A DNA stretch of 64,000 bases from Thermodesulfobacteriota bacterium. Lineage in GTDB: Bacteria > Desulfobacterota_D > UBA1144 > Nemesobacterales > Nemesobacteraceae. The first letter of the stretch is position 1. Every line of letters begins with the position of its first letter. Position numbers and translations under genes: made by a program. The DNA lies in assembly GCA_965116075.1 (NCBI GenBank), contig OZ220467.1, positions 684,580-748,579 of the forward strand. The letters are read 5' to 3'. This document shows positions 1,983-11,243 of this stretch, in pieces. The notes below the pieces were generated by a model that saw only the letters and a list, made by a program, of their open reading frames with translations, had not been told where the DNA came from and made no database searches.

Positions 1983-2003
1983 CAACTTAAACTGTGAAGC
2001 GCA
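1983..2003. repeat. solo IS30-IR-like motif cttaaactgtgaagcgcaacac
   Basis: The same ~20-nt motif forms the tip of the IS30 element at 4449-4470 (inverted) and of the IS30 end fragment at 9750-9770. Confidence 0.4.
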
Positions 2004-2689
2004 ACACTTAGGGTTGGGTTCACTACGTTCTGATAAGATTTAGCACAACCTCGCGGAAATTGCCCTGCGGAAGTCGCCGCCAAACGCAAACTGAATTCCG
2101 AATCGACAGCCAAGACTACACCCCCAAACGACCGACACCTTTATACACTGTTCTGGGAGACTTTCTCAAAGAATGATGTTAATGTCCTTTGTTGACTAGA
2201 CGGAACTTGCGGAACAATTTTGAGATAAGGCATTGGTATTATTGATAAAGTAGAAAAATAAAATGTTCTTTACTGGACAGGTTTTAGTTTAACCCCAGAT
2301 GAGTCAGAAACAGCGTGGTCGCCTTTGAATAGTACATGCAATCCTTGAATAACTTTGGGTGAACATTTGGATAAACTAGAGATGGTACGTTTATGGGCTT
2401 TTCTGTTTTTCGATAGGACTCACATAGCAGGATAGCGGGTGGAGAATTTCTGTTTGGGATGCGATCTACATACATGCACAGGATAATATATAAGAAAATG
2501 AAGCCTGTCAAGTGGAAAAAGCAAATAAACTACAAATATACATGGACAGAATATTACACGAAAAACAGATAAAAGTAAACTAATATGAATAAGTTACACT
2601 CAAAAAAAGGTAGATTTTTCCCACAAGTTCAGACTAGAGAAAGCATAGTTGGTGTTCGCCAGAAAACCCCCTTTTTACAGGGATGTATT

Positions 2690-2844
2690 CTAGTGTTGCG
2701 TCAAGGGCATATTTCCTGTACAATGTGTTTCAAAGCGAGGAATTTGCGGTCCAAGCCGTCCTTGCACAACCAAGGATCAGTTGCCGATGTCCGCTACAGA
2801 CACAAGTCCATCTACCCCCAAATCATTATTTGACGGAACACTAG
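2690..2844 (+). mobile_element. 155-bp MITE derived from the IS630-family element (terminal inverted repeats, no transposase)
   Basis: Starts ctagtgttgcgtcaag and ends ttgacggaacactag. Its internal sequence matches both extremities of the full IS630 copies with the middle deleted (for example gtccgctacagacacaagtccatctaccccc versus the revcomp of 6258-6320). Confidence 0.7.
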
Positions 2845-3292
2845 GTTTGAGGTTCAATTCAATGTTTTCAATGCGAATCTTGCCGAATTCTAGTTGTGTA
2901 TTGCGTACTTGTTTCATACTTTCCTCCCGAAGAATTGCTAAAATTGGTCAATTTGTGCATAAATGGCCCAAAAACGGCTTTTTTGCCTCAATTTTCGGAT
3001 AAAAACACCTGATTAGTTAAGTAAAAACAATGCATAATGTCTTTTTCTGACAAACACTAGTTTACCTGCCAATCACCTCTACTACGGACGTGATCTCTTC
3101 TCTGGGAAGATGAATCTATTATGCAACCTGATTGCTACACTCTCATCTCGGGTTGCAATTCCTCTCGGCCTTCTGTCGGCACGCTTACTCTATGAGCCGA
3201 CTTAACGATACAAGGTGATGGACCTACGTTGGAAGCGCACAGGTATGCAAATGCCACAACCAACACAAGCAATTCACCTAATCCCCTATGAC

Positions 3293-4472
3293 CCCTAAAC
3301 TCTATGCGTTTACCACGTCCCCACAATCATCATACTATCCTGTCCGCTGAACTTTGCTGACCACGTTTACAATCGCTTCTTGAACCGAACACCCTCTGTT
3401 CTCCAGCGCTTGCTCAAATACTTCCTGGGGCGTACAGAATCCCAGAACTTTACGTGGACGATTATTCAGCAAGTCTTGTACTCGTTGTACCTCTGCATCT
3501 TTTAACCGACTCAAGTCCGTCCCCTTCGGCCAGTACTGCCGAATTAACCCATTGCTGTGTTCGCTCAACCCTCGCTCCCACGAATGAACGGTATCGCAAA
3601 ATAAAACCCAGCTCCCAATGCTTTAGATACATCCTCGTGATCCGCAAACTCCTTGCCGTTGTCAGACGTCAGCGTCAAACACAAATCCTTATTCGGCTTT
3701 AACTTCTTCTTTATCGCACCGCTTACTTCCTGCGCTGTCTTTCGCTTTACCTTCTGCATCAATACAAACTTTGACCCTCGCTCTACTAACGTCACCAACA
3801 CCCCACAATGCTTAGACCCTATCATCGTGTCAAACTCCCAGTCCCCAACCCGATTCTTCTCCTCCACCACCTCCGGTCGTTCCCTTATATCTATCCTGTT
3901 CTTTATCACTCCACGGCCTGCCCCCTTGCCACTACGGTTATACTTCTTCCCACGATGTCGTAGATGACAATATAGGTCGCCTCCTTGTTCACGGTCCTGC
4001 CAAATGTGTTGATATATCCTTGTATGGCTTATATCCACTACTCCTTCCATCTTCAAACGACCCGCTATCTGTTCAGGACTAAACTGATAAACTGTCAACA
4101 ACTCCTCTATTATCGTCAGCACCTCTGCTGTTATTTTGCGACAACACGATGACGCTTCTCTTCGCCTATTCTCTGATAGCTCTTGGGCCTGCTCGTGATT
4201 ATAACTTCTTCATCCATGATTCCTTCTCAGCTCCCAGCTGATCGCGGAAACAGAACGTCCAAGTCGCTTGGCAATCTGCCGAAGCGACAACCCCACACTA
4301 ATCATAATTTCTATCTGGACTCGTTCATCGCAACTAAGGTGATGATAGCATGATGACATAAGAGACTCCTCCTTTAGTACAGTCTCGGAGCGTATCACCA
4401 TCCCTCAGCCCTTTCAACTACTCGCTTTTAAGAACCCTCTTCGTTATAATCGTTGTGTTGCGCTTCGCAGTT
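3293..4472 (-). mobile_element. IS30-family insertion sequence (~1.18 kb) with frameshifted transposase
   Basis: It encodes an IS30 transposase in three consecutive minus-strand ORFs. The imperfect terminal repeats are cccctaaactctatgcg at 3293 and ccattaaactgcgaagcgcaac (revcomp) at 4449-4472. The element abuts the hsdS fragment. Confidence 0.75.
3335..4401 (-). pseudogene. IS30-family DDE transposase broken by two frameshifts (ORFs 4210-4401, 3565-4122, 3335-3568)
   Basis: The N-terminal HTH ORF contains RQIAKRLGRSVSAISWELRRN. The central ORF contains the DDE region WEFDTMIGSKHCGVLVTLVERGSKFVLMQKV. The C-terminal ORF contains GLIRQYWPKGTDLSRLKDAEVQRVQDLLNNRPRKVLGFCTPQEVF. All three are IS30 hallmarks. 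Confidence 0.8.
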
Positions 4473-4660
4473 TAATGGACGTTCCAAAATTGGAAGAACA
4501 AACAGCCATCGCTGGCATCCTCTCCGACATGGACAGCGAAATCAATACCCTCGAACAGCGCCTTGAAAAAGCCCGCAACCTCAAAACCGGCATGATGCAA
4601 GAACTTTTAACTGGCAAAACACGATTAATCAAAACCGGTAAAAAGCAGGAGGTAGCATGA
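4473..4660 (+). pseudogene. hsdS: Type I restriction-modification HsdS specificity subunit, C-terminal ~60 aa only (truncated by IS30)
   Basis: Reads VPKLEEQTAIAGILSDMDSEINTLEQRLEKARNLKTGMMQELLTGKTRL, the conserved C-terminal helix of HsdS target-recognition domains. It begins exactly at the IS30 end. Confidence 0.6.
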
Positions 4661-5508
4661 AAAAAGAGCTCATCACCACACTTACAGATAATTTTGAGCT
4701 TCATGCCCAGCAGACCGAAATCGGTATTGAATACTGGCTTGCCCGTGATCTGCAGCACCTTCTGGGTTATGATCAGTGGCGAAACTTTGCTCAGGTGATT
4801 TCCAAGGCCAAAGTGGCTTGCGAAGTGAGTGGCCATGAAGTTTCAGACCATTTTGCTGACGTCGGCAAAATGGTCAATCTAGGTTCCGGCGGTAAGCGAG
4901 AGATCGATGATGTGATGCTCACCCGATACGCTTGCTATCTTATTGCCCAGAATGGCGATCCACGAAAAGAGCAGATTGCTTTTGCTCAGACGTACTTTGC
5001 CATGCAAACGCGCAGAGCTGAGCTGATCGAGCAACGTATCCTAGAGCAAGAACGCCTTTCTGTCCGTAAGAAGCTAATACAGACAGAAAAAGAACTCTCC
5101 GAGGTCATATACGAGCAAACAGAACAAGATCGCAACTTTGGGATTATTCGCAGCAAAGGTGACCAAGCGCTCTTTGGTAAAAGCACGCAGCAAATGAAAG
5201 CGCAGTGGAAAGTGCCTAACAGCCGCCCACTTGCTGATTTTGCACCAACCATCATCCTCAAGGCAAAAGACTTTGCTACGGAAATCACCATTCACAATGC
5301 CTGTGAGAAGAACATGAGCACTGAATCGGCTATATCCGGAGAACATATTACCAACAATCAGGCGGTACGCAGAACCTTGATTGAACGGGGCATCCGTCCT
5401 GATGCCTTGCCGCCATCAGAAGATATCAAGAAGCTAGAGCGACGCATTGCATCGCAGGAGAAGAAAGCACTTAAATCACCAGATAGTTTGGACAGTAATG
5501 ATGAGTAA
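4657..5508 (+). CDS. dinD: DNA-damage-inducible protein D (DinD) homologue, 283 aa
   Basis: GIEYWLARDLQHLLGYDQWRNFAQV, RYACYLIAQNGDPRKEQIAFAQTYFAMQTRR and other blocks align with E. coli DinD (GQEYWSARELAPLLGYRDWRNFQKV...RYACYLVVQNGDP...QTYFAIQTRR). AGGAGG lies 5 nt upstream of the ATG. The gene is embedded in the R-M locus remnant. Confidence 0.85.
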   Translation: MKKELITTLTDNFELHAQQTEIGIEYWLARDLQHLLGYDQWRNFAQVISKAKVACEVSGHEVSDHFADVGKMVNLGSGGKREIDDVMLTRYACYLIAQNGDPRKEQIAFAQTYFAMQTRRAELIEQRILEQERLSVRKKLIQTEKELSEVIYEQTEQDRNFGIIRSKGDQALFGKSTQQMKAQWKVPNSRPLADFAPTIILKAKDFATEITIHNACEKNMSTESAISGEHITNNQAVRRTLIERGIRPDALPPSEDIKKLERRIASQEKKALKSPDSLDSNDE

Positions 5509-6257
5509 GGTTGGAGCCATAGAGCGCGTTATGCGAAACCGCATCGTTAAACTGTTTAAAGAACAACTTGGATACGAATATCTGGGAGACTGGAAAGACC
5601 GCGCCGATAACAAAAACATTGAAATAAGCCTGTTAAAGCCATTTTTTCGGAAGCAAGGTTATAGCGAAAAGCTAATTGAACGCGCCTTGCGGGAACTGGA
5701 TAAAGCTGCCGCGCTTGGCGATGGCCGAAGCCTCTATGATGTCAACAAGGATGTTTACCGACTGCTGTGCTATGGCATCAAGGTCAAAGAAGGTGGCGGG
5801 GAGCAAAAAAACCGTCTGGTTGGTTAACTGGAAAAACCCGGAAAAGAATGACTTTGCTATTGCAGAGGAAGTCACCGTCAAAGGCAACAATACCAAACGC
5901 CCGGATGTGGTAATTTACCTCAACGGCATTGCCATTGGTGTGATTGAACTGAAACGCTCCATCATTGGTCTAACGGAAGGCATTTGCCAGAACCTGCTCA
6001 ATCAGCGCAGGGACTTTATCCGCCCATTCTTCACCACCATGTAGCTGGTGATGGCCGGAAACCATACGCAAGGCTTGCGCTATGACACTATCAAGACCAG
6101 CGAGAAGTATTATCTGGAATGGAAAGAAAATGGCGGCATTGGTAAATACAAACTAGATCGACACCTTTCCCTCATGTGTGAGAAGCGCCGTTTTCTTGAG
6201 TTGATCCATGATTTCATTGTATTTGAAGCTGGCACCAAAAAGATCTGCCGCCAGAAC
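5501..6257 (+). pseudogene. hsdR: Type I restriction enzyme HsdR, N-terminal ~250 codons; frameshifted near 5810, stopped near 6044, truncated by IS630 at 6257
   Basis: Three consecutive frames read MMSKVGAIERVMRNRIVKLFKEQLGYEYLGDWKDRADNKNIEISLLKPFFRKQGY..., then KKTVWLVNWKNPEKNDFAIAEEVTVKGNNTKRPDVVIYLNGIAIGVIELKRS (the classic HsdR N-terminal nuclease-domain motif), then a further fragment ending at the IS630 terminal repeat. Confidence 0.75.
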
Positions 6258-6267
6258 TAGTGTTGCG

Positions 6268-6936
6268 TCAAGCAATGATTTTGGGGTAGATGGATTTGAG
6301 TCTGCAGCGGGCATCGGCAACCGACATACGCCAATTCACACCACGCTGGCTTGCGTTGACATGTTGCGACCACGCCGCCGCCTCGGCCCGCAACTCGTCC
6401 AGGTCCCCGATCCGTCGACCCTTCAGACACTGCCGCGTCAGACAACTCAACTCACACTCAGCCACGTTCAGCCAACTCGCGTGCTTTGGGGTGTACTGGA
6501 ACTTGATGCGCTGCCTCAACCGCCTCGCCCGCTTCGGCTCAAAAGCCTCGTACAACGCTCCCGGTGTATGCGTGTTAAGGTTGTCCAGCACCAGTGTAAT
6601 TCTCTCGCAGTTTGCATAGCGACTCTCCAGCAGAGCCGACACCTCCTCCGCCCAGTCCAATTTAGTGCGCCGCTCTCGCACCGTCACCGTGCGCCAACCT
6701 GCCAGCGGTTCACAGAACAGGAACACCGAGGCCATGCCAGCCCGTTGATACTCATAGTCCACACGGCGCGGATGCTCCGTGGTTGCAGGCAATGGCTGGC
6801 GGGTTTCCCCCACCATCTGTACCGGCTGTTCGTCCATACAGACCACTGGCCGTCGCTCATCGTAAGGCTCTTCGTAGGTCGACAGAACATCTTCCATGGC
6901 CGCCACATACTCCCCGTCCGCCTTCGGCGGAATCAC
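6268..6936 (-). CDS. IS630-family transposase, DDE catalytic part (orfB)
   Basis: The 222-aa product contains LVLDNLNTHT...KFQYTPKHASWLNVAECELSCL, the DDE_3 (Tc1/IS630) motifs. Confidence 0.8.
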   Translation of the reverse strand: MIPPKADGEYVAAMEDVLSTYEEPYDERRPVVCMDEQPVQMVGETRQPLPATTEHPRRVDYEYQRAGMASVFLFCEPLAGWRTVTVRERRTKLDWAEEVSALLESRYANCERITLVLDNLNTHTPGALYEAFEPKRARRLRQRIKFQYTPKHASWLNVAECELSCLTRQCLKGRRIGDLDELRAEAAAWSQHVNASQRGVNWRMSVADARCRLKSIYPKIIA

Positions 6937-7404
6937 CCAGTACTGCAGATAGCGCCCCGCAATGCCGTTTTTTTTAACGTCTGGTTGACGGTTTCGTGGC
7001 TGATTGATTCACAGATGCCAACCTCAACCGCCTCGCTTGCCAGCAGCCGTAGCGACCATTGGCCGTAGCCGACCGGTGGCGGCCCCAGCCGTAGCGCGAT
7101 CAGCGCGGCTTCCTGCCGCCCGTCCAAGAGCTTCGGTGGCCAAGTGGACGGGTCCCGTTGCCGCCCGTTGAGAGCCAACTCAAAACCTTCCAGCACGCAA
7201 CATTTACGCACGTTCGCAACAGTGCGCTCCTGACAACCATATGCCTCCGCAACCTGGTGGTCGCACCAGTTTGACCCGTCCGCATCAACTTGTAGCAGAA
7301 TACGTGCCCGGCGCGCTTTCTGACTGCTACCCTTGAGCTTCTTGATGACCTCCTGACATGTCTTGCGTTCGGCCTCCGACAGCCGCACAATGTACTTCTT
7401 CATG
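6933..7404 (-). CDS. IS630-family transposase, N-terminal HTH part (orfA); likely fused to orfB by programmed frameshift
   Basis: Begins MKKYIVRLSEAERKTCQEVIKKLKGSSQKARRARILLQVDADGSNWCDHQVAEAYG. An A8 run (plus-strand tttttttt at 6963-6970) sits exactly at the orfA/orfB junction and is a candidate slippery site. Confidence 0.7.
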
Positions 7405-7567
7405 GTGTTCCTCCTCCTTTGTTGTAGAAAGACGGCTTGGGACATGAATCCCTCGCCTTGAAACACATTATACAAGAAATGTTGCCATTGACGCAACACT
7501 AGTTGAATTTTTTCCCTTCTTTCAGCATACCCGCCCCCTCGGGAACAGGAAGGTCAAATCATCATGA

Positions 7568-7722
7568 CTAGTGTTGCGTCAAGTAATGGTTTTTGAGTAG
7601 ATGGACTTAAGTCTGCAACGGGCATCGGCGACCGACCCTTTTTTGTGCAAAAACGGCTCGGACCACGGAGTCATCGCCTTGGACACATTGCACAAAAAAT
7701 ATAGCCCTTGACGCAACACTAG
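7568..7722 (-). mobile_element. 155-bp MITE derived from the IS630-family element
   Basis: Bounded by ctagtgttgcgtcaag and cttgacgcaacactag, with ~120 bp of internal sequence, no ORF, and the same length as the MITE at 2690. Confidence 0.75.
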
Positions 7723-8013
7723 GTGGTTTTGCTACGCTTGTGCACAACCATGATCTTGACCGGACGATTAAACTTAAACTGACACTTGATGTTTCCAGTG
7801 AGCAGAATAGTAGTTTCCTATCTCTGAAAAAAGGGGTTTTCTGGCGAACACTTGCTTGTTGGCTTCTAGGTGGTTTTGCTACGCTTGTGCACAACCATAA
7901 TCTTGACCGGACGATTAAACTTAAACTGACACTTGATGTTTCCAGTGAGCAGAATAGTAGTTTCCTATCTCTGAAAAGGGGGTTTTCTGGCGAACACTTG
8001 CTTGTTGGCTTCT
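7722..8013. repeat. direct tandem duplication, 2 x ~147 bp
   Basis: ggtggttttgctacgcttgtgcacaacca...gggggttttctggcgaacacttgcttgttggcttc is repeated at 7722 and 7869 with 2-3 mismatches. The second unit overlaps the 3' end of the 7965-8237 gene. The fragment ggggttttctggcgaacac also occurs (inverted) at 2651-2680. Confidence 0.8.
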
Positions 8014-8237
8014 TCCAGCAACCCAGCCAAAGCCTTATAAATATCTTCAATGCCACCCTGCATTAGTTCCCTAGTATCAACAGGTGATTCACCATAAAGG
8101 CTCACATATAAATCAGATAGCCTCTTGGATATTTTCTGATCTATGACCTCTCTCTCTTGCAAGAGGTTGGTGATCTCACCCATCTTGTTCCAGTTTTCTT
8201 TATATGAAATAAAATCTACATTTTGAGCCATGATCAT
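7965..8237 (-). CDS. hypothetical small protein (90 aa)
   Basis: The ORF is intact in the low-GC region, MIMAQNVDFISYKENWNKMGEITNLLQEREVIDQKISKRLSDLYVSLYGESPV.... No recognisable family; coding status uncertain. Confidence 0.4.
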   Translation of the reverse strand: MIMAQNVDFISYKENWNKMGEITNLLQEREVIDQKISKRLSDLYVSLYGESPVDTRELMQGGIEDIYKALAGLLEEANKQVFARKPPFQR

Positions 8238-8314
8238 ATTATAACCATTTCCTTCAGGTTGTCAACAGTTATGTGCGTGATGTAAGTTATTGGGGCAAAA
8301 TGGGAGACTTAAAA

Positions 8315-8437
8315 ATGAAGAAGATTTTCTTGGTTATCTACATACTGCTTGGTTCTGTTGCTTGTGGTGGCGGTGATGGCGGTGGCGAAAATGTAGATGG
8401 AGAGACTGCGATGCGGTTGCTGTGCGAGAACTTTTGC
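8315..8437 (+). pseudogene. small lipoprotein gene interrupted by IS630 copy B
   Basis: MKKIFLVIYILLGSVACGGGDGGGENVDGETAMRLLCENFC carries a signal peptide plus lipobox (LGSVA-C). The reading frame runs straight into the IS terminal repeat at 8438. Confidence 0.4.
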
Positions 8438-9686
8438 CTAGTGTTGCGTCAAGTAATGATTTTTGGATAGATGGACTTGAGTCTGCAGCGGGCATCGGCA
8501 ACCGACATACGCCAGTTCACACCACGCTGGCTTGCGTTGACACGTTGCGACCACGCCGCCACCTCAGCCCGCAACTCGTCCAGGTCCCCGATCCGTCGAC
8601 CCTTCAGACACTGCCGCGTCAGACAACTCAACTCGCACTCAGTCACGTTCAGCCAACTCGCGTGCTTCGGAGTGTACTGGAACTTGATGCGTTGCCTCAG
8701 CCGCCGCGCCCGCTCCGGCTCAAAAGCCTCGTACAACGCTCCCTGCGTGTGCGTGTTGAGGTTGTCCAGCACCAGCGTGACCATCTCGCAGTCTGCATAG
8801 TGACTCTCCAGCAGAGCCGCCACTTCCTCCGCCCAGTCCAACTTGGTGCGCCGCTCTCGCACCGTCACCGTGCGCCAACCTGCCAGCGGTTCATAGAACA
8901 GGAACACCGAGGCCATGCCGGCCCGCTGATACTCGTAGTCCACACGGCGCGGATACTCCATGGTTGCGGGCAATGGCTGGCGGGTTTCCCCCACCATCTG
9001 TACCGGCTGTTCGTCCATGCAAACCACTGGCCGCCGCTCATCATAAGGCTCCTCGTAGGTCGACAGAACATCTTCCATGGCCGCCACATACTCCCCGTCC
9101 GCCTTCGGCGGAATCACCCAGTACTGCAGGTAGCGTCCCGCTATACCGTTTTTTTTAATGTCTTGTTGACGGTTTCATGGCTGATCGATTCACAGATGCC
9201 GACCTCAACCGCCTCGCTTGCCAGCAGACGTAGCGACCATTGGCCGTAGCCAGAGCAGCCGGTGGCGGCCCCAACCGCAACGCGATCAGCGCGGCTTCCT
9301 GCCGCCCGTCCAGAAGCTTCGGCGGCCAGGTGGATGGGTCCCGTTGCCGCCCGTTGAGGGCCAACTCAAAACCTTCCAGCACGCAACATTTACGCACGTT
9401 CGCGACAGTACGCTCCTGACAACCGTAGGCCTCCGCAACCTAGTGGTCGCACCAGTTCGGCCCGTCCGCATCAACTTGTAGCAGAATACGCGCCCGGCGC
9501 GCTTTCTGACTGCTACCCTTGAGTTTATTGATGACCTCCTGACATGTTTTGCGTTCAGCCTCCGACAGGCGCACAATGTACTTCTTCATGGTTCCTCCTC
9601 CTTTGTTGTAGAAAGACGGCTTGGGACACGAAGCCCTCGCCTTGAAACACATTATACAAGAAATGTTGCCTTTGACGCAACACTAG
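8438..9686 (-). mobile_element. IS630-family insertion sequence, copy B (degenerate)
   Basis: Same terminal repeats as copy A and ~93-95% identity. The DDE ORF 8449-9117 is intact, but the N-terminal part is split into 9155-9397 and 9440-9652 by extra indels. Confidence 0.85.
8449..9652 (-). pseudogene. IS630-family transposase of copy B, multiply frameshifted
   Basis: The N-terminal ORF begins ...MKKYIVRLSEAERKTCQEVINKLKG, the middle fragment reads MRKCCVLEGFELALNGRQRD..., and the C-terminal DDE ORF is 222 aa. Confidence 0.75.
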
Positions 9687-9744
9687 TATTTCGGCATCGG
9701 GGAGGCGCAAGATGATATTCGCCGCCGTCAAGGTGGTATTATTT

Positions 9745-9860
9745 GGCGCCCATTAAATTGTGAAGCGCAACGAAACAATTATAACGAAGAGGGTTCTTAA
9801 AGGCGAGTAGTTGAAGGGACCAAGAGATGGTGATACGCTCCGAGACTGTACTAAAGGAGG
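9745..9860 (+). mobile_element. IS30 end fragment (~115 bp: terminal repeat plus first codons of the transposase), inverted relative to the IS30 at 3293-4472
   Basis: 9745-9860 is the reverse complement of 4360-4475 (ccattaaattgtgaagcgcaac...atggtgatacgctccgagactgtactaaaggagg), then diverges. Confidence 0.6.
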
Positions 9861-10142
9861 TTCGCCATTTCTAGAGCTTCAACCAAAAATGGATCAGGAT
9901 AATTCACAGACATACCATGAAACTGAACTAAGTACCTGTCTGATTCCGTTTTCTTTGGAACCCTGTTGTAAACGTAATCACCGAGGGGGGCGAGTTCTTA
10001 TACAAATGACCTTTGATCTGGAACCTTAAAAGAACTTGTTACGGCGGCGTTAAGCGTTTTCTCGCTAGGAGAATGCGGGGGTCATCGGGCAATTCGTCTA
10101 GTTTCTCCTACTCGCTTTGATAAAGTATATTATCCGATCAAT

Positions 10143-11243
10143 ATGGAACTCGGATATTTCTCAATACCTCTTCATCCTGCCGGTTCTCCGCTTTTTCTGA
10201 CGCTTGACCAAGACCTAGAGCAGATGGTCTTTCTTGACCAGGTTGGTTTTTCAGAAGTGTGGATAGGGGAGCATTTCACCGCAGGTTGGGAGAATATCGC
10301 GGCCCCCGATCTGTTCATAGCGAAAGCTTCTACTCTTACGGAAAAAATAATATTTGGTACAGGTGTTTCCTGTTTACCTGAGCATGACCCTTTTATGCTT
10401 GCGCATAGAATCGCGGTTCTAGACAATCTGCTCAAGGGAAGGTTCTACTGGGGTGTGGGAGCGGGAAGTTTTATAGGGGATTTTGAGGCATTTGGCATAA
10501 ATCCAAAAACAGGAGAGCAGAGACAACTGATGAATGAAGCGCTTGAGGCGATACTGGACCTCTGGGATAACCCTACTCCGGGTACGTATAGTGGCTCAAA
10601 GTGGAGGTACACGGTTCCTAATCCTGTGGAAGAAGTTGGTCTCGGAGTGCACACAAAACCTTTCCAAAAGCCTCATCCTCCCATAGCTGTCGCGGGGATT
10701 TCTGAAGGTTCTTTGAGTCTGAAAACAGCGGGGGAGCACGGCTGGATGCCGATGAGCATAAATTTTGTGATTCCAGATGTCCTTAAATCTCACTGGGAGA
10801 TGTACGAGCAGGGAGCTTTTGCTGTGGGAAATAGTAATCCTGACAGGAAAAAATGGAGAATCTCAAGGGATATTTACGTGGCGGATACAACAGAGCAAGC
10901 TAGAAGGGATGTTAAGGGAAGCACTTTAGCAAGAGATTTCCGTGATTATTTTTTCAAGATAGTTCCAATGATAAGAAAAAACCTAGACTTGTTCAAAATT
11001 GATAAGTCAATGCCTGATAGTGAAGTTACGATTGACTATATGATTGACAACATGTGGCTTGTCGGAAGTCCAGAAGATGTAGCCGCAAAGATAGTACGGC
11101 TTTACGAATTTGTTGGAGGATTCGGAGTGCTTTTGGTAATGGGACACGAATGGAATCCAAAAGAGAAATGGGAGAAGTCTCTGACTCTTCTTAGAGAACA
11201 AGTCATTCCCATGGTGAAAAAGAATCTACGGGTAAAGGACTAA
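10143..11243 (+). CDS. LLM-class (luciferase-like) flavin-dependent oxidoreductase
   Basis: 366 aa containing GEHFTAGWENIAAPDLFIAKASTLTEKIIFGTGVSCLPEHDPFMLAHRIAVLDNL, typical of bacterial luciferase-like monooxygenases. Confidence 0.85.
   Translation: MELGYFSIPLHPAGSPLFLTLDQDLEQMVFLDQVGFSEVWIGEHFTAGWENIAAPDLFIAKASTLTEKIIFGTGVSCLPEHDPFMLAHRIAVLDNLLKGRFYWGVGAGSFIGDFEAFGINPKTGEQRQLMNEALEAILDLWDNPTPGTYSGSKWRYTVPNPVEEVGLGVHTKPFQKPHPPIAVAGISEGSLSLKTAGEHGWMPMSINFVIPDVLKSHWEMYEQGAFAVGNSNPDRKKWRISRDIYVADTTEQARRDVKGSTLARDFRDYFFKIVPMIRKNLDLFKIDKSMPDSEVTIDYMIDNMWLVGSPEDVAAKIVRLYEFVGGFGVLLVMGHEWNPKEKWEKSLTLLREQVIPMVKKNLRVKD

Follow-up and report, generated by a model that had tools for sequence, protein, structure and literature searches.

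We analysed a 64,000-nucleotide stretch of a Thermodesulfobacteriota bacterium genome (assembly GCA_965116075.1, contig OZ220467.1, positions 684,580 to 748,579 of the forward strand), hereafter the window. It contains two full-length insertion sequences (ISs), copies A and B, and two 155-bp elements, M1 and M2, that share their ends and that we discuss as MITEs (transposable elements of the miniature inverted-repeat type). All four lie in a decayed type I restriction-modification locus that is also cut by an IS30-like element (Table 1). In copy A the transposase is divided between two overlapping open reading frames (ORFs), orfA and orfB, which meet at a run of eight A residues (A8). An earlier note, made from the letters of the stretch alone, had assigned the elements to the IS630 family and proposed frameshifting at this run; both proposals are examined here.

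Insertion sequence copies, their ends and their transposase

The window was searched for the terminal 16-mer CTAGTGTTGCGTCAAG, allowing up to three mismatches. Eight occurrences were found, against 0.40 expected, and none of 100 shuffles reached eight. The sites pair in inverted orientation at the outer coordinates of four elements of 1246 bp (copy A), 1249 bp (copy B) and 155 bp (M1 and M2), just where the earlier note had put them, and at all eight ends the terminal 13–16 nucleotides agree in inverted orientation. A sensitive BLAST of the window revealed no copies or fragments beyond these four. Aligned, copies A and B show 93.6% identity, their differences amounting to 80 mismatches and 7 gap columns, and the GC content of the IS is 58%, that of the host DNA about 43%. 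Copy A, with ends matching the 16-mer at 16/16 and 15/16 positions, is intact and potentially autonomous. Copy B was suspected of being dead, and this holds at least for its orfA, which carries both a nonsense codon and a frame-shifting insertion; there is also a 2-bp deletion between its ribosome-binding site and ATG, and its orfB is intact. A promoter scan flagged no promoter in the orfA-proximal end, where a TGTATAAT box is visible on which we make no claim, and Rfam gave no match in 2000–10500. We also considered a composite transposon made up of copies A and B and the 935 bp between them; nothing speaks for it or against it, as every end is CTAG.

Table 1. Features of the window and of related loci (window positions unless a contig or locus is named)
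Feature	Position	Strand	Remarks
Copy A, full-length IS630-family element	6257..7502	-	1246 bp including flanking C-TA-G on each side; both ORFs open, both ends present
orfA-proximal end of copy A	7487..7502	-	CTAGTGTTGCGTCAAT; C-TA is flank plus target, inverted repeat proper begins at G
orfB-distal end of copy A	6257..6272	+	CTAGTGTTGCGTCAAG; holds the transposase TGA stop; ISPna1 arranged alike
orfA of copy A, 156 amino acids	6933..7403	-	helix-turn-helix DNA-binding part; ATG at 7403, TGA at 6933-6935
orfB part of copy A	6268..6967	-	-1 frame; DDE_3 catalytic domain; TGA stop at 6268-6270 within the terminal repeat
Putative A8 recoding site of copy A	6968..6975	-	TTA AAA AAA ACG in frame 0, A_AAA_AAA in register; within the orfA/orfB overlap
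Copy B, defective	8438..9686	-	1249 bp, oriented as copy A, 93.6% identical to it
Copy B nonsense codon in orfA	9440..9442	-	TAG, directly after WCDH
Copy B insertion in orfA	9251..9255	-	5 bp (CAGAG on the plus strand), shifts the orfA frame
Copy B A8 run	9149..9156	-	kept
MITE M1	2690..2844	- (as listed)	155 bp, opposite in orientation to M2 and both full copies; ends 16/16 and 14/16 to the 16-mer; empty site in L187
MITE M2	7568..7722	+ (as listed)	155 bp, oriented as copies A and B; ends 16/16 and 16/16 to the 16-mer
79-bp element	JALYRU01		loci L002, L009, L011, L012, L030, L053, L056, L089
GTGTTCGCCAGAAAACCCCCTTTTT motif	2652-2680	-	beside M1
GTGTTCGCCAGAAAACCCCCTTTTT motif	7827-7851; 7969-7997		beside M2
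GTGTTCGCCAGAAAACCCCCTTTTT motif preceded by CTAG	L187, 975-1005		CTAGTGTTCGCCAG
Tandem duplication	7719-8012		147-bp unit, 97% identical
Small ORF	7965-8237	-	3' end overlapped by the tandem duplication
IS30-like element, degenerate	~3290-4480	-	HTH_38 and integrase-core pieces split by frameshifts; interrupts hsdS
Type I restriction-modification remains	4475-6260		hsdS C-terminal fragment, Bro-N domain gene (4657-5508), hsdR N-terminus
Inverted copy of IS30-like 5' end	9747-9860		114 nucleotides, 89% identical, just past copy B
Giant ORF	28365-64000	+, frame 3	11,878 codons or more, still open at the window end

Joining orfA and orfB of copy A by a -1 shift gives a 378-amino-acid protein with a junction that reads TLKKNGIAGRYLQYWVIPPKA. 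This fusion scored 192.4 bits (cutoff 100) against the NCBIfam profile NF033545 (transpos_IS630), in an alignment of residues 31–349 with profile positions 1–298 of 299 that runs unbroken across the junction. Pfam placed HTH_23 at residues 28–68 and HTH_32 at residues 61–143, and detected DDE_3 with 85.7 bits (cutoff 28.6); the catalytic triad D191, D274 and E316 (fusion numbering) is invariant in an alignment of 17 sequences of 48–67% identity. The best database relatives of the fusion are single-ORF transposases of 377–380 amino acids (60–67% identity, 99% coverage) that read TLKKNGIxGRKLQYWVIPPKA where the fusion has its junction, and its homologues carry IS630 annotation. The element sizes and inverted ends also fit the family trait of about 1.1–1.4 kb with terminal inverted repeats, and the assignment to IS630 is thus upheld by profile, domains and homologues alike. 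Taken together, the region very probably holds four copies of one IS630-family IS of the ISPna1-like group, ISPna1 being the closest named relative found, with a recoded transposase and MITE derivatives.

CTAG stands on both sides of all four window elements and of five related full copies, with unrelated sequence beyond, and the same flanking is seen in about 25 short elements elsewhere (among the matches listed). Inspection of the ends for duplicated TA revealed none outside the 16-mer; the TA sits within CTAG. IS630 takes the TA within CTAG as its insertion site, and this TA is duplicated (Tenzen and Ohtsubo 1991, as related in PMC2170065). Given this preference, the true inverted repeat would be the 13 nucleotides GTGTTGCGTCAAG, so that the 16-nucleotide repeats described in the earlier note are real as sites but take in part of the target. 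An empty site was found on L187, a contig of a sister genome, where positions 978–1179 correspond to window positions 2652–2689 joined to 2845–3002 at 95–97.5% identity, with a single CTAG exactly at the M1 insertion point; this shows M1 to be a discrete element inserted into CTAG. Flanking ORFs revealed no intact continuation across the insertions of copy A (into hsdR) or copy B, and there are in-frame TAG codons at both sites; the region around these copies is too rearranged for their sites to serve as empty-site tests. From the sequences we consider that the target is CTAG, with the TA probably duplicated; a point on the other side is that they are equally compatible with a 2-bp TA or a 4-bp CTAG duplication. 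The CTAG pairs mark exact insertion boundaries in this region, whose restriction-modification locus mobile elements have broken up.

The A8 run and the change of reading frame

A -1 shift, or the addition of one A, at the A8 run of copy A yields L-K-K-N-G and restores the conserved LKKNG...YWVIPP motif. (The plus-strand T8, earlier placed at 6963–6970, is in fact the run at 6968–6975.) The A8 run is retained in all five close copies, namely copy B and those at L103, L104, L182 and L187 (91–99% nucleotide identity to copy A), and none of them has A9. Both ORFs are intact in the L182 and L187 copies, in which an orfA of 156 amino acids is likewise called. When copy A is compared with the L182 copy, the ratio of nonsynonymous to synonymous substitution (dN/dS) comes to 0.11 in the orfA part and 0.10 in the orfB part, at a synonymous divergence (dS) of 0.30. 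The low values indicate that both frames, the downstream one included, have been under purifying selection.

For a broader view of the junction, a metagenome scan was performed that gave 77 relatives, 62 of which had both halves detectable and were used for frame counts. orfB was in the -1 frame in 55 of these and in the +1 frame in 7, and was in frame with orfA in none; the junction always fell at the A-run in the Leu-Lys-Lys motif. Among the 55 relatives in the -1 state the run was A7 in 40, A8 in 13 and A6 in 2. Adding one A turned 46 of the 55 into complete ORFs of 365–390 amino acids, and 6 more stayed open as far as the contig end. Annotated plasmids gave the two-piece orfA/orfB match as well, and for ISPna1, on the Polaromonas naphthalenivorans CJ2 plasmid pPNAP02, RefSeq gives the transposase as a single coding sequence of 1133 nucleotides, a length that 3 does not divide, that falls one base below 378 codons and that suits a -1 frameshift. 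Frameshifting is on record for the IS630 family (PMC5009743). The deep conservation of the site, the otherwise intact flanking ORFs and the dN/dS of 0.10 indicate programmed -1 recoding at the A8 run. To this extent the proposal that the orfA/orfB junction coincides with a -1 site was sound.

It could be argued instead that A8 is an inactivating mutation, or an on/off switch worked by replication slippage, and that the element moves by way of in-frame relatives acting in trans or of rare A8-to-A9 revertants. In-frame relatives do exist, one A apart in a Candidatus Parabeggiatoa copy (A9, TTA AAA AAA AAC) and with a broken run in another (GAA GAA AAC), so the frameshifted state is not obligatory for the clade; the top protein matches are single ORFs, and many copies are decayed. 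These relatives speak against a programmed site, as does the standing of the fusion product as one deduced from sequence. A mutation or switch would, however, have to be squared with the lack of a single in-frame case among the 62 metagenomic relatives, with the 46 that are otherwise intact in both halves, and with constraint on the downstream frame sustained over a dS of 0.24–0.30. It would also have to account for two intact A8 copies, 98.8% identical, that occupy different sites, for close copies that are all A8, and for the length of the ISPna1 coding sequence. We regard it as very unlikely and retain the programmed -1 site, which leaves the question of whether the ribosome or RNA polymerase slips there. 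The earlier note took the ribosomal route for granted; the programmed site stands, but transcriptional slippage is an equally live route to it. In its favour the ribosome has the A8 of copy A itself, where the zero frame presents A_AAA_AAA as a perfect heptamer; in other IS elements this motif is proven to support -1 ribosomal frameshifting (PMC4066793). Several results tell against it: no stimulatory structure was found by the run (single-sequence folds on the two sides gave z-scores of -0.26 and -0.21), RNAalifold on 52–53 relatives returned zero consensus pairs, and 34 of the 55 -1 relatives have a run that begins at the first position of a codon (N_AAA_AAA_A), which is no canonical heptamer for tandem slippage.

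If RNA polymerase mainly changes the frame, slippage on the T8 template would add one A to some transcripts, and normal translation of these would give OrfAB. Such a mechanism would suit a junction whose conserved feature is run length, the 34 relatives just mentioned being without an in-register X_XXY_YYZ heptamer, and at which neither a conserved stimulatory RNA structure nor a conserved Shine–Dalgarno-like element was found near the run. It would likewise suit the in-frame A9 relative and the 7 relatives that are +1 at A6 or A7, since transcript slippage could rescue these and a simple -1 ribosomal slip could not. There are precedents: a Roseiflexus IS630 element has been demonstrated to use transcriptional realignment (PMC5009743), and transcriptional slippage has been proposed for IS elements of Deinococcus radiodurans and Nostoc PCC 7120 that carry A8–A10 runs (PMC1088944). 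Against polymerase, in addition to the in-register heptamer of copy A, stands the run length itself, as A7, the commonest state in the relatives, is shorter than the 8–9 nucleotides usually cited for productive polymerase slippage (PMC3711429; PMC5009743). The register data discriminate weakly between the two, because the L-K-K-N coding constraint could fix the register under either model. We lean slightly to the ribosome at the run of copy A, giving it an even chance, and hold polymerase slippage to be a serious possibility that falls short of that.

The seven +1 relatives are those at L155, L159, L115, L119, L165, L171 and L181. Removing one A gave ORFs of at least 362 amino acids in 5 of the 7 and shorter open stretches in the other 2, and near-identical +1 forms were seen in metagenomes independent of each other. 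Mutation, errors in homopolymer sequencing or another recoding state could account for them. A bolder reading, which we put forward as a speculation with the balance clearly against it, is that the A-run is a register-independent, length-tunable slippage switch, probably transcriptional (-1 at A7 or A8, in frame at A9, +1 at A6 or A7). This switch would be common to a cross-phylum IS630 clade with conserved 13–16-nucleotide termini that has repeatedly and independently made MITEs of 79–300 bp. For studies of recoding in IS630 elements, the survey provides a clean comparative set, in which the -1 state accounts for 55 of 62 relatives and A7, A8 and A9 variants are represented. For annotation, the two apparent genes of copy A are best entered as a single transposase whose frame changes by a programmed -1 shift, and copy B as a pseudogene.

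The 155-bp elements, copy number and surrounding DNA

Each of the 155-bp elements consists of about 69 nucleotides of the orfB-distal end of the IS and about 86 nucleotides of the orfA-proximal end, and is non-coding. M1 and M2 are 80% identical to each other, and each is about 86% identical to the IS ends. They have one deletion junction in common, with little microhomology, and 7 derived positions at which both differ from both full copies; their flanks are otherwise unrelated. These three features fit a single deletion after which the short element itself moved, and the divergence of about 20% between M1 and M2 indicates that both insertions are old. Rather than being a mobile MITE family, the pair might have arisen by separate internal deletions in two full copies or by segmental duplication. 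Just two of them were seen, 20% diverged, and a 24–29-nucleotide motif is found near the same end of both; moreover, four 20-kb loci of the sister genome yielded no MITE, which counts against a mobile family. Against these other origins stand the identical junction, the same 7 positions and the otherwise unrelated flanks. So do the homologous L187 site, which is without M1 and has a single CTAG at the insertion point, and the short multicopy elements that the same termini bound elsewhere (described below). We consider both of these origins highly improbable, and the claim that the MITE itself transposed is supported by the shared junction, the derived positions, the unrelated flanks and the empty site. 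M1 and M2 should accordingly be marked as MITEs in annotation and not left as unannotated intergenic DNA.

The GC content of the MITEs is lower than that of the IS (48% versus 58%). AT-biased decay was considered as the cause and rejected, as there were 10 GC-to-AT and 8–9 AT-to-GC changes.

Two further repeats adjoin the MITEs. The motif noted above, GTGTTCGCCAGAAAACCCCCTTTTT, occurs three times by the same end of both. On L187 the same motif is preceded by CTAG (CTAGTGTTCGCCAG), resembling an IS630-type terminus, and could mark one end of a further small mobile element. Beside M2 there is a tandem duplication that begins exactly at the TAG of the terminal CTAG of M2.

As to activity, the earlier note called the element actively proliferating. 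The orfB proteins of copies A and B correspond exactly to P0130 and P0122, respectively, both on the source contig of 2,386,527 bp, which carries at least 11 orfB variants, some of them one residue apart. The intact L187 copy, 98.8% identical to copy A, stands at a different site, and M1 is an insertion polymorphism, being absent at the L187 site. These are signs of fairly recent movement. On the other side, divergence amounts to 6.4% between copies A and B and to about 20% between the MITEs, several database variants are truncated, and inactivating lesions were present in 4 of the 7 full copies examined (copy B and those at L103, L104 and L096). Active proliferation is thus supported in part: the family has clearly expanded and, to judge from these comparisons, may still be mobile today.

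We propose the following scheme. An element of about 1.24 kb with 13-nucleotide inverted repeats would insert in the TA of CTAG and duplicate the TA, giving CTAG...CTAG bounds. orfA would supply the helix-turn-helix DNA-binding domains and orfB, in the -1 frame, the DDE catalytic domain, so that the active 378-amino-acid enzyme would arise only upon a -1 shift at A8 (TTA AAA AAA ACG); a ribosome slipping back one base on A_AAA_AAA and a polymerase adding one A would produce the same L-K-K-N-G junction. Most translation would end after orfA, which, by analogy with IS1, IS3 and IS911, would hold transposase levels low and could provide a DNA-binding regulator in the form of OrfA. Having lost orfA, copy B would be movable only in trans, and M1 and M2, descended from one internal deletion that kept just the two ends, would likewise have been moved in trans as a MITE.

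The surrounding restriction-modification locus is reduced to remnants. Its hsdR N-terminus is broken by a frameshift and a stop and is then truncated by copy A, and its hsdS is interrupted by the degenerate IS30-like element, the 5' end of which recurs in inverted orientation just past copy B. Farther along the window lies a giant ORF with fibronectin type III, Calx-beta and PKD repeats and a GC content of 55–71%, against about 43% in the rest of the window. In the sister genome (ENA ERZ24894574; L104, L182 and L187), an IS66-family transposase gene is followed by an ORF matching the DruA Pfam family (297 amino acids where complete), and at least 7 such pairs were found in the three 20-kb loci.

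Distribution and comparison with known elements

An exact scan of genome contigs for the 16-mer gave at least 102 loci, the source genome being outside the matches listed. With about 280 chance matches estimated for the collection, single matches mean little, and genomes with multiple hits and inverted pairs alone were used. The termini were found in the Dadabacteria-like genome and, among the matches listed, in Acidobacteriota, Proteobacteria, Bacteroidota and Cyanobacteria, and in a Methanosarcinaceae metagenome-assembled genome (MAG). A 79-bp CTAG-bounded element with the same 16-nucleotide terminus is present in at least 8 copies in JALYRU01 (Pseudomonadota MAG MDV bin97); the sequence is the same in at least 7 of them, the flanks differ from copy to copy, and the element looks like a recently active MITE family. 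Short MITE-like elements with the 16-mer were also found, among the matches listed, in Neolewinella (157–169 bp), Desulfobacterales and Desulfobulbaceae (166 bp), Bryobacterales (172 bp) and the Methanosarcinaceae MAG (88 bp). The occurrence of such elements in many unrelated genomes suggests that MITE production is a recurrent habit of this IS630 clade; one conserved terminus gave rise to MITEs in many phyla, and nothing is altered in what is known of the family. In species-representative genomes, the closest DNA relative is a decayed copy, 81.6% identical, on the Bryobacterales (Acidobacteriota) chromosome OZ220485.1 (L096), which suggests transfer between phyla. At that locus (L096, 2056–4530) two related elements, the first of them the decayed copy, stand head to tail with one CTAG in common.

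The closest known systems are ISPna1 and the RefSeq group 'IS630-like element ISPna1 family transposase', and ISPna1 resembles the window element in several respects. Both have a transposase of about 378 amino acids in two frames that a -1 shift joins at the A-run of the L-K-K-N motif, and both are CTAG-bounded, about 1.2 kb long and end in near-alike termini (CTAGTGTCGCGTCATGA in ISPna1, CTAGTGTTGCGTCAAG here) with the TGA stop inside the terminal repeat. The ISPna1 junction reads CTC AAA AAA ACG, and its ends are CTAGTGTCGCGTCATGA...CATGACGCGACACTAG. The two differ in sequence (49.5% amino acid identity), in run length (A7 versus A8 here) and in host, ISPna1 being from the Betaproteobacteria and the present element from a Dadabacteria-like genome. 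The SufD encoded in the window is 100% identical to a protein of the 2.39-Mb source contig, and its nearest named relatives are from Candidatus Dadabacteria (71–73%). The element joins the ISPna1-like group of IS630 as a further member, and its recoding site is of an already known type.

More distant members of the family offer similar parallels. IS630 of Shigella sonnei and ISY100 of Synechocystis, as described, have a DDE transposase with an N-terminal helix-turn-helix and move by cut-and-paste at TA with its duplication, as proposed here; IS630 prefers the TA in CTAG (PMC2170065), the sequence present at every end and at the empty site. IS630-family elements have been described with single transposase genes (PMC2170065), whereas here two frames need joining. 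In the Roseiflexus IS630 element and the A8–A10 IS elements of D. radiodurans and Nostoc PCC 7120, as here, the transposase depends on a change of frame at a homopolymeric or slippery run between the DNA-binding and catalytic parts (PMC5009743; PMC1088944). The Roseiflexus element differs in having T5C5 with an adjacent nascent-RNA hairpin and in losing one C (PMC5009743), in contrast to the plain A8 here, by which a hairpin was undetected. M1 and M2, for their part, resemble bacterial IS630-derived MITEs and the eukaryotic Stowaway elements (Tc1/mariner) in being short and non-coding, in keeping the parental termini and a TA target, and in their likely origin by internal deletion and mobilization in trans. 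They differ in that just two diverged copies are visible here, whereas elsewhere the same termini bound shorter and more uniform families such as the 79-bp element.

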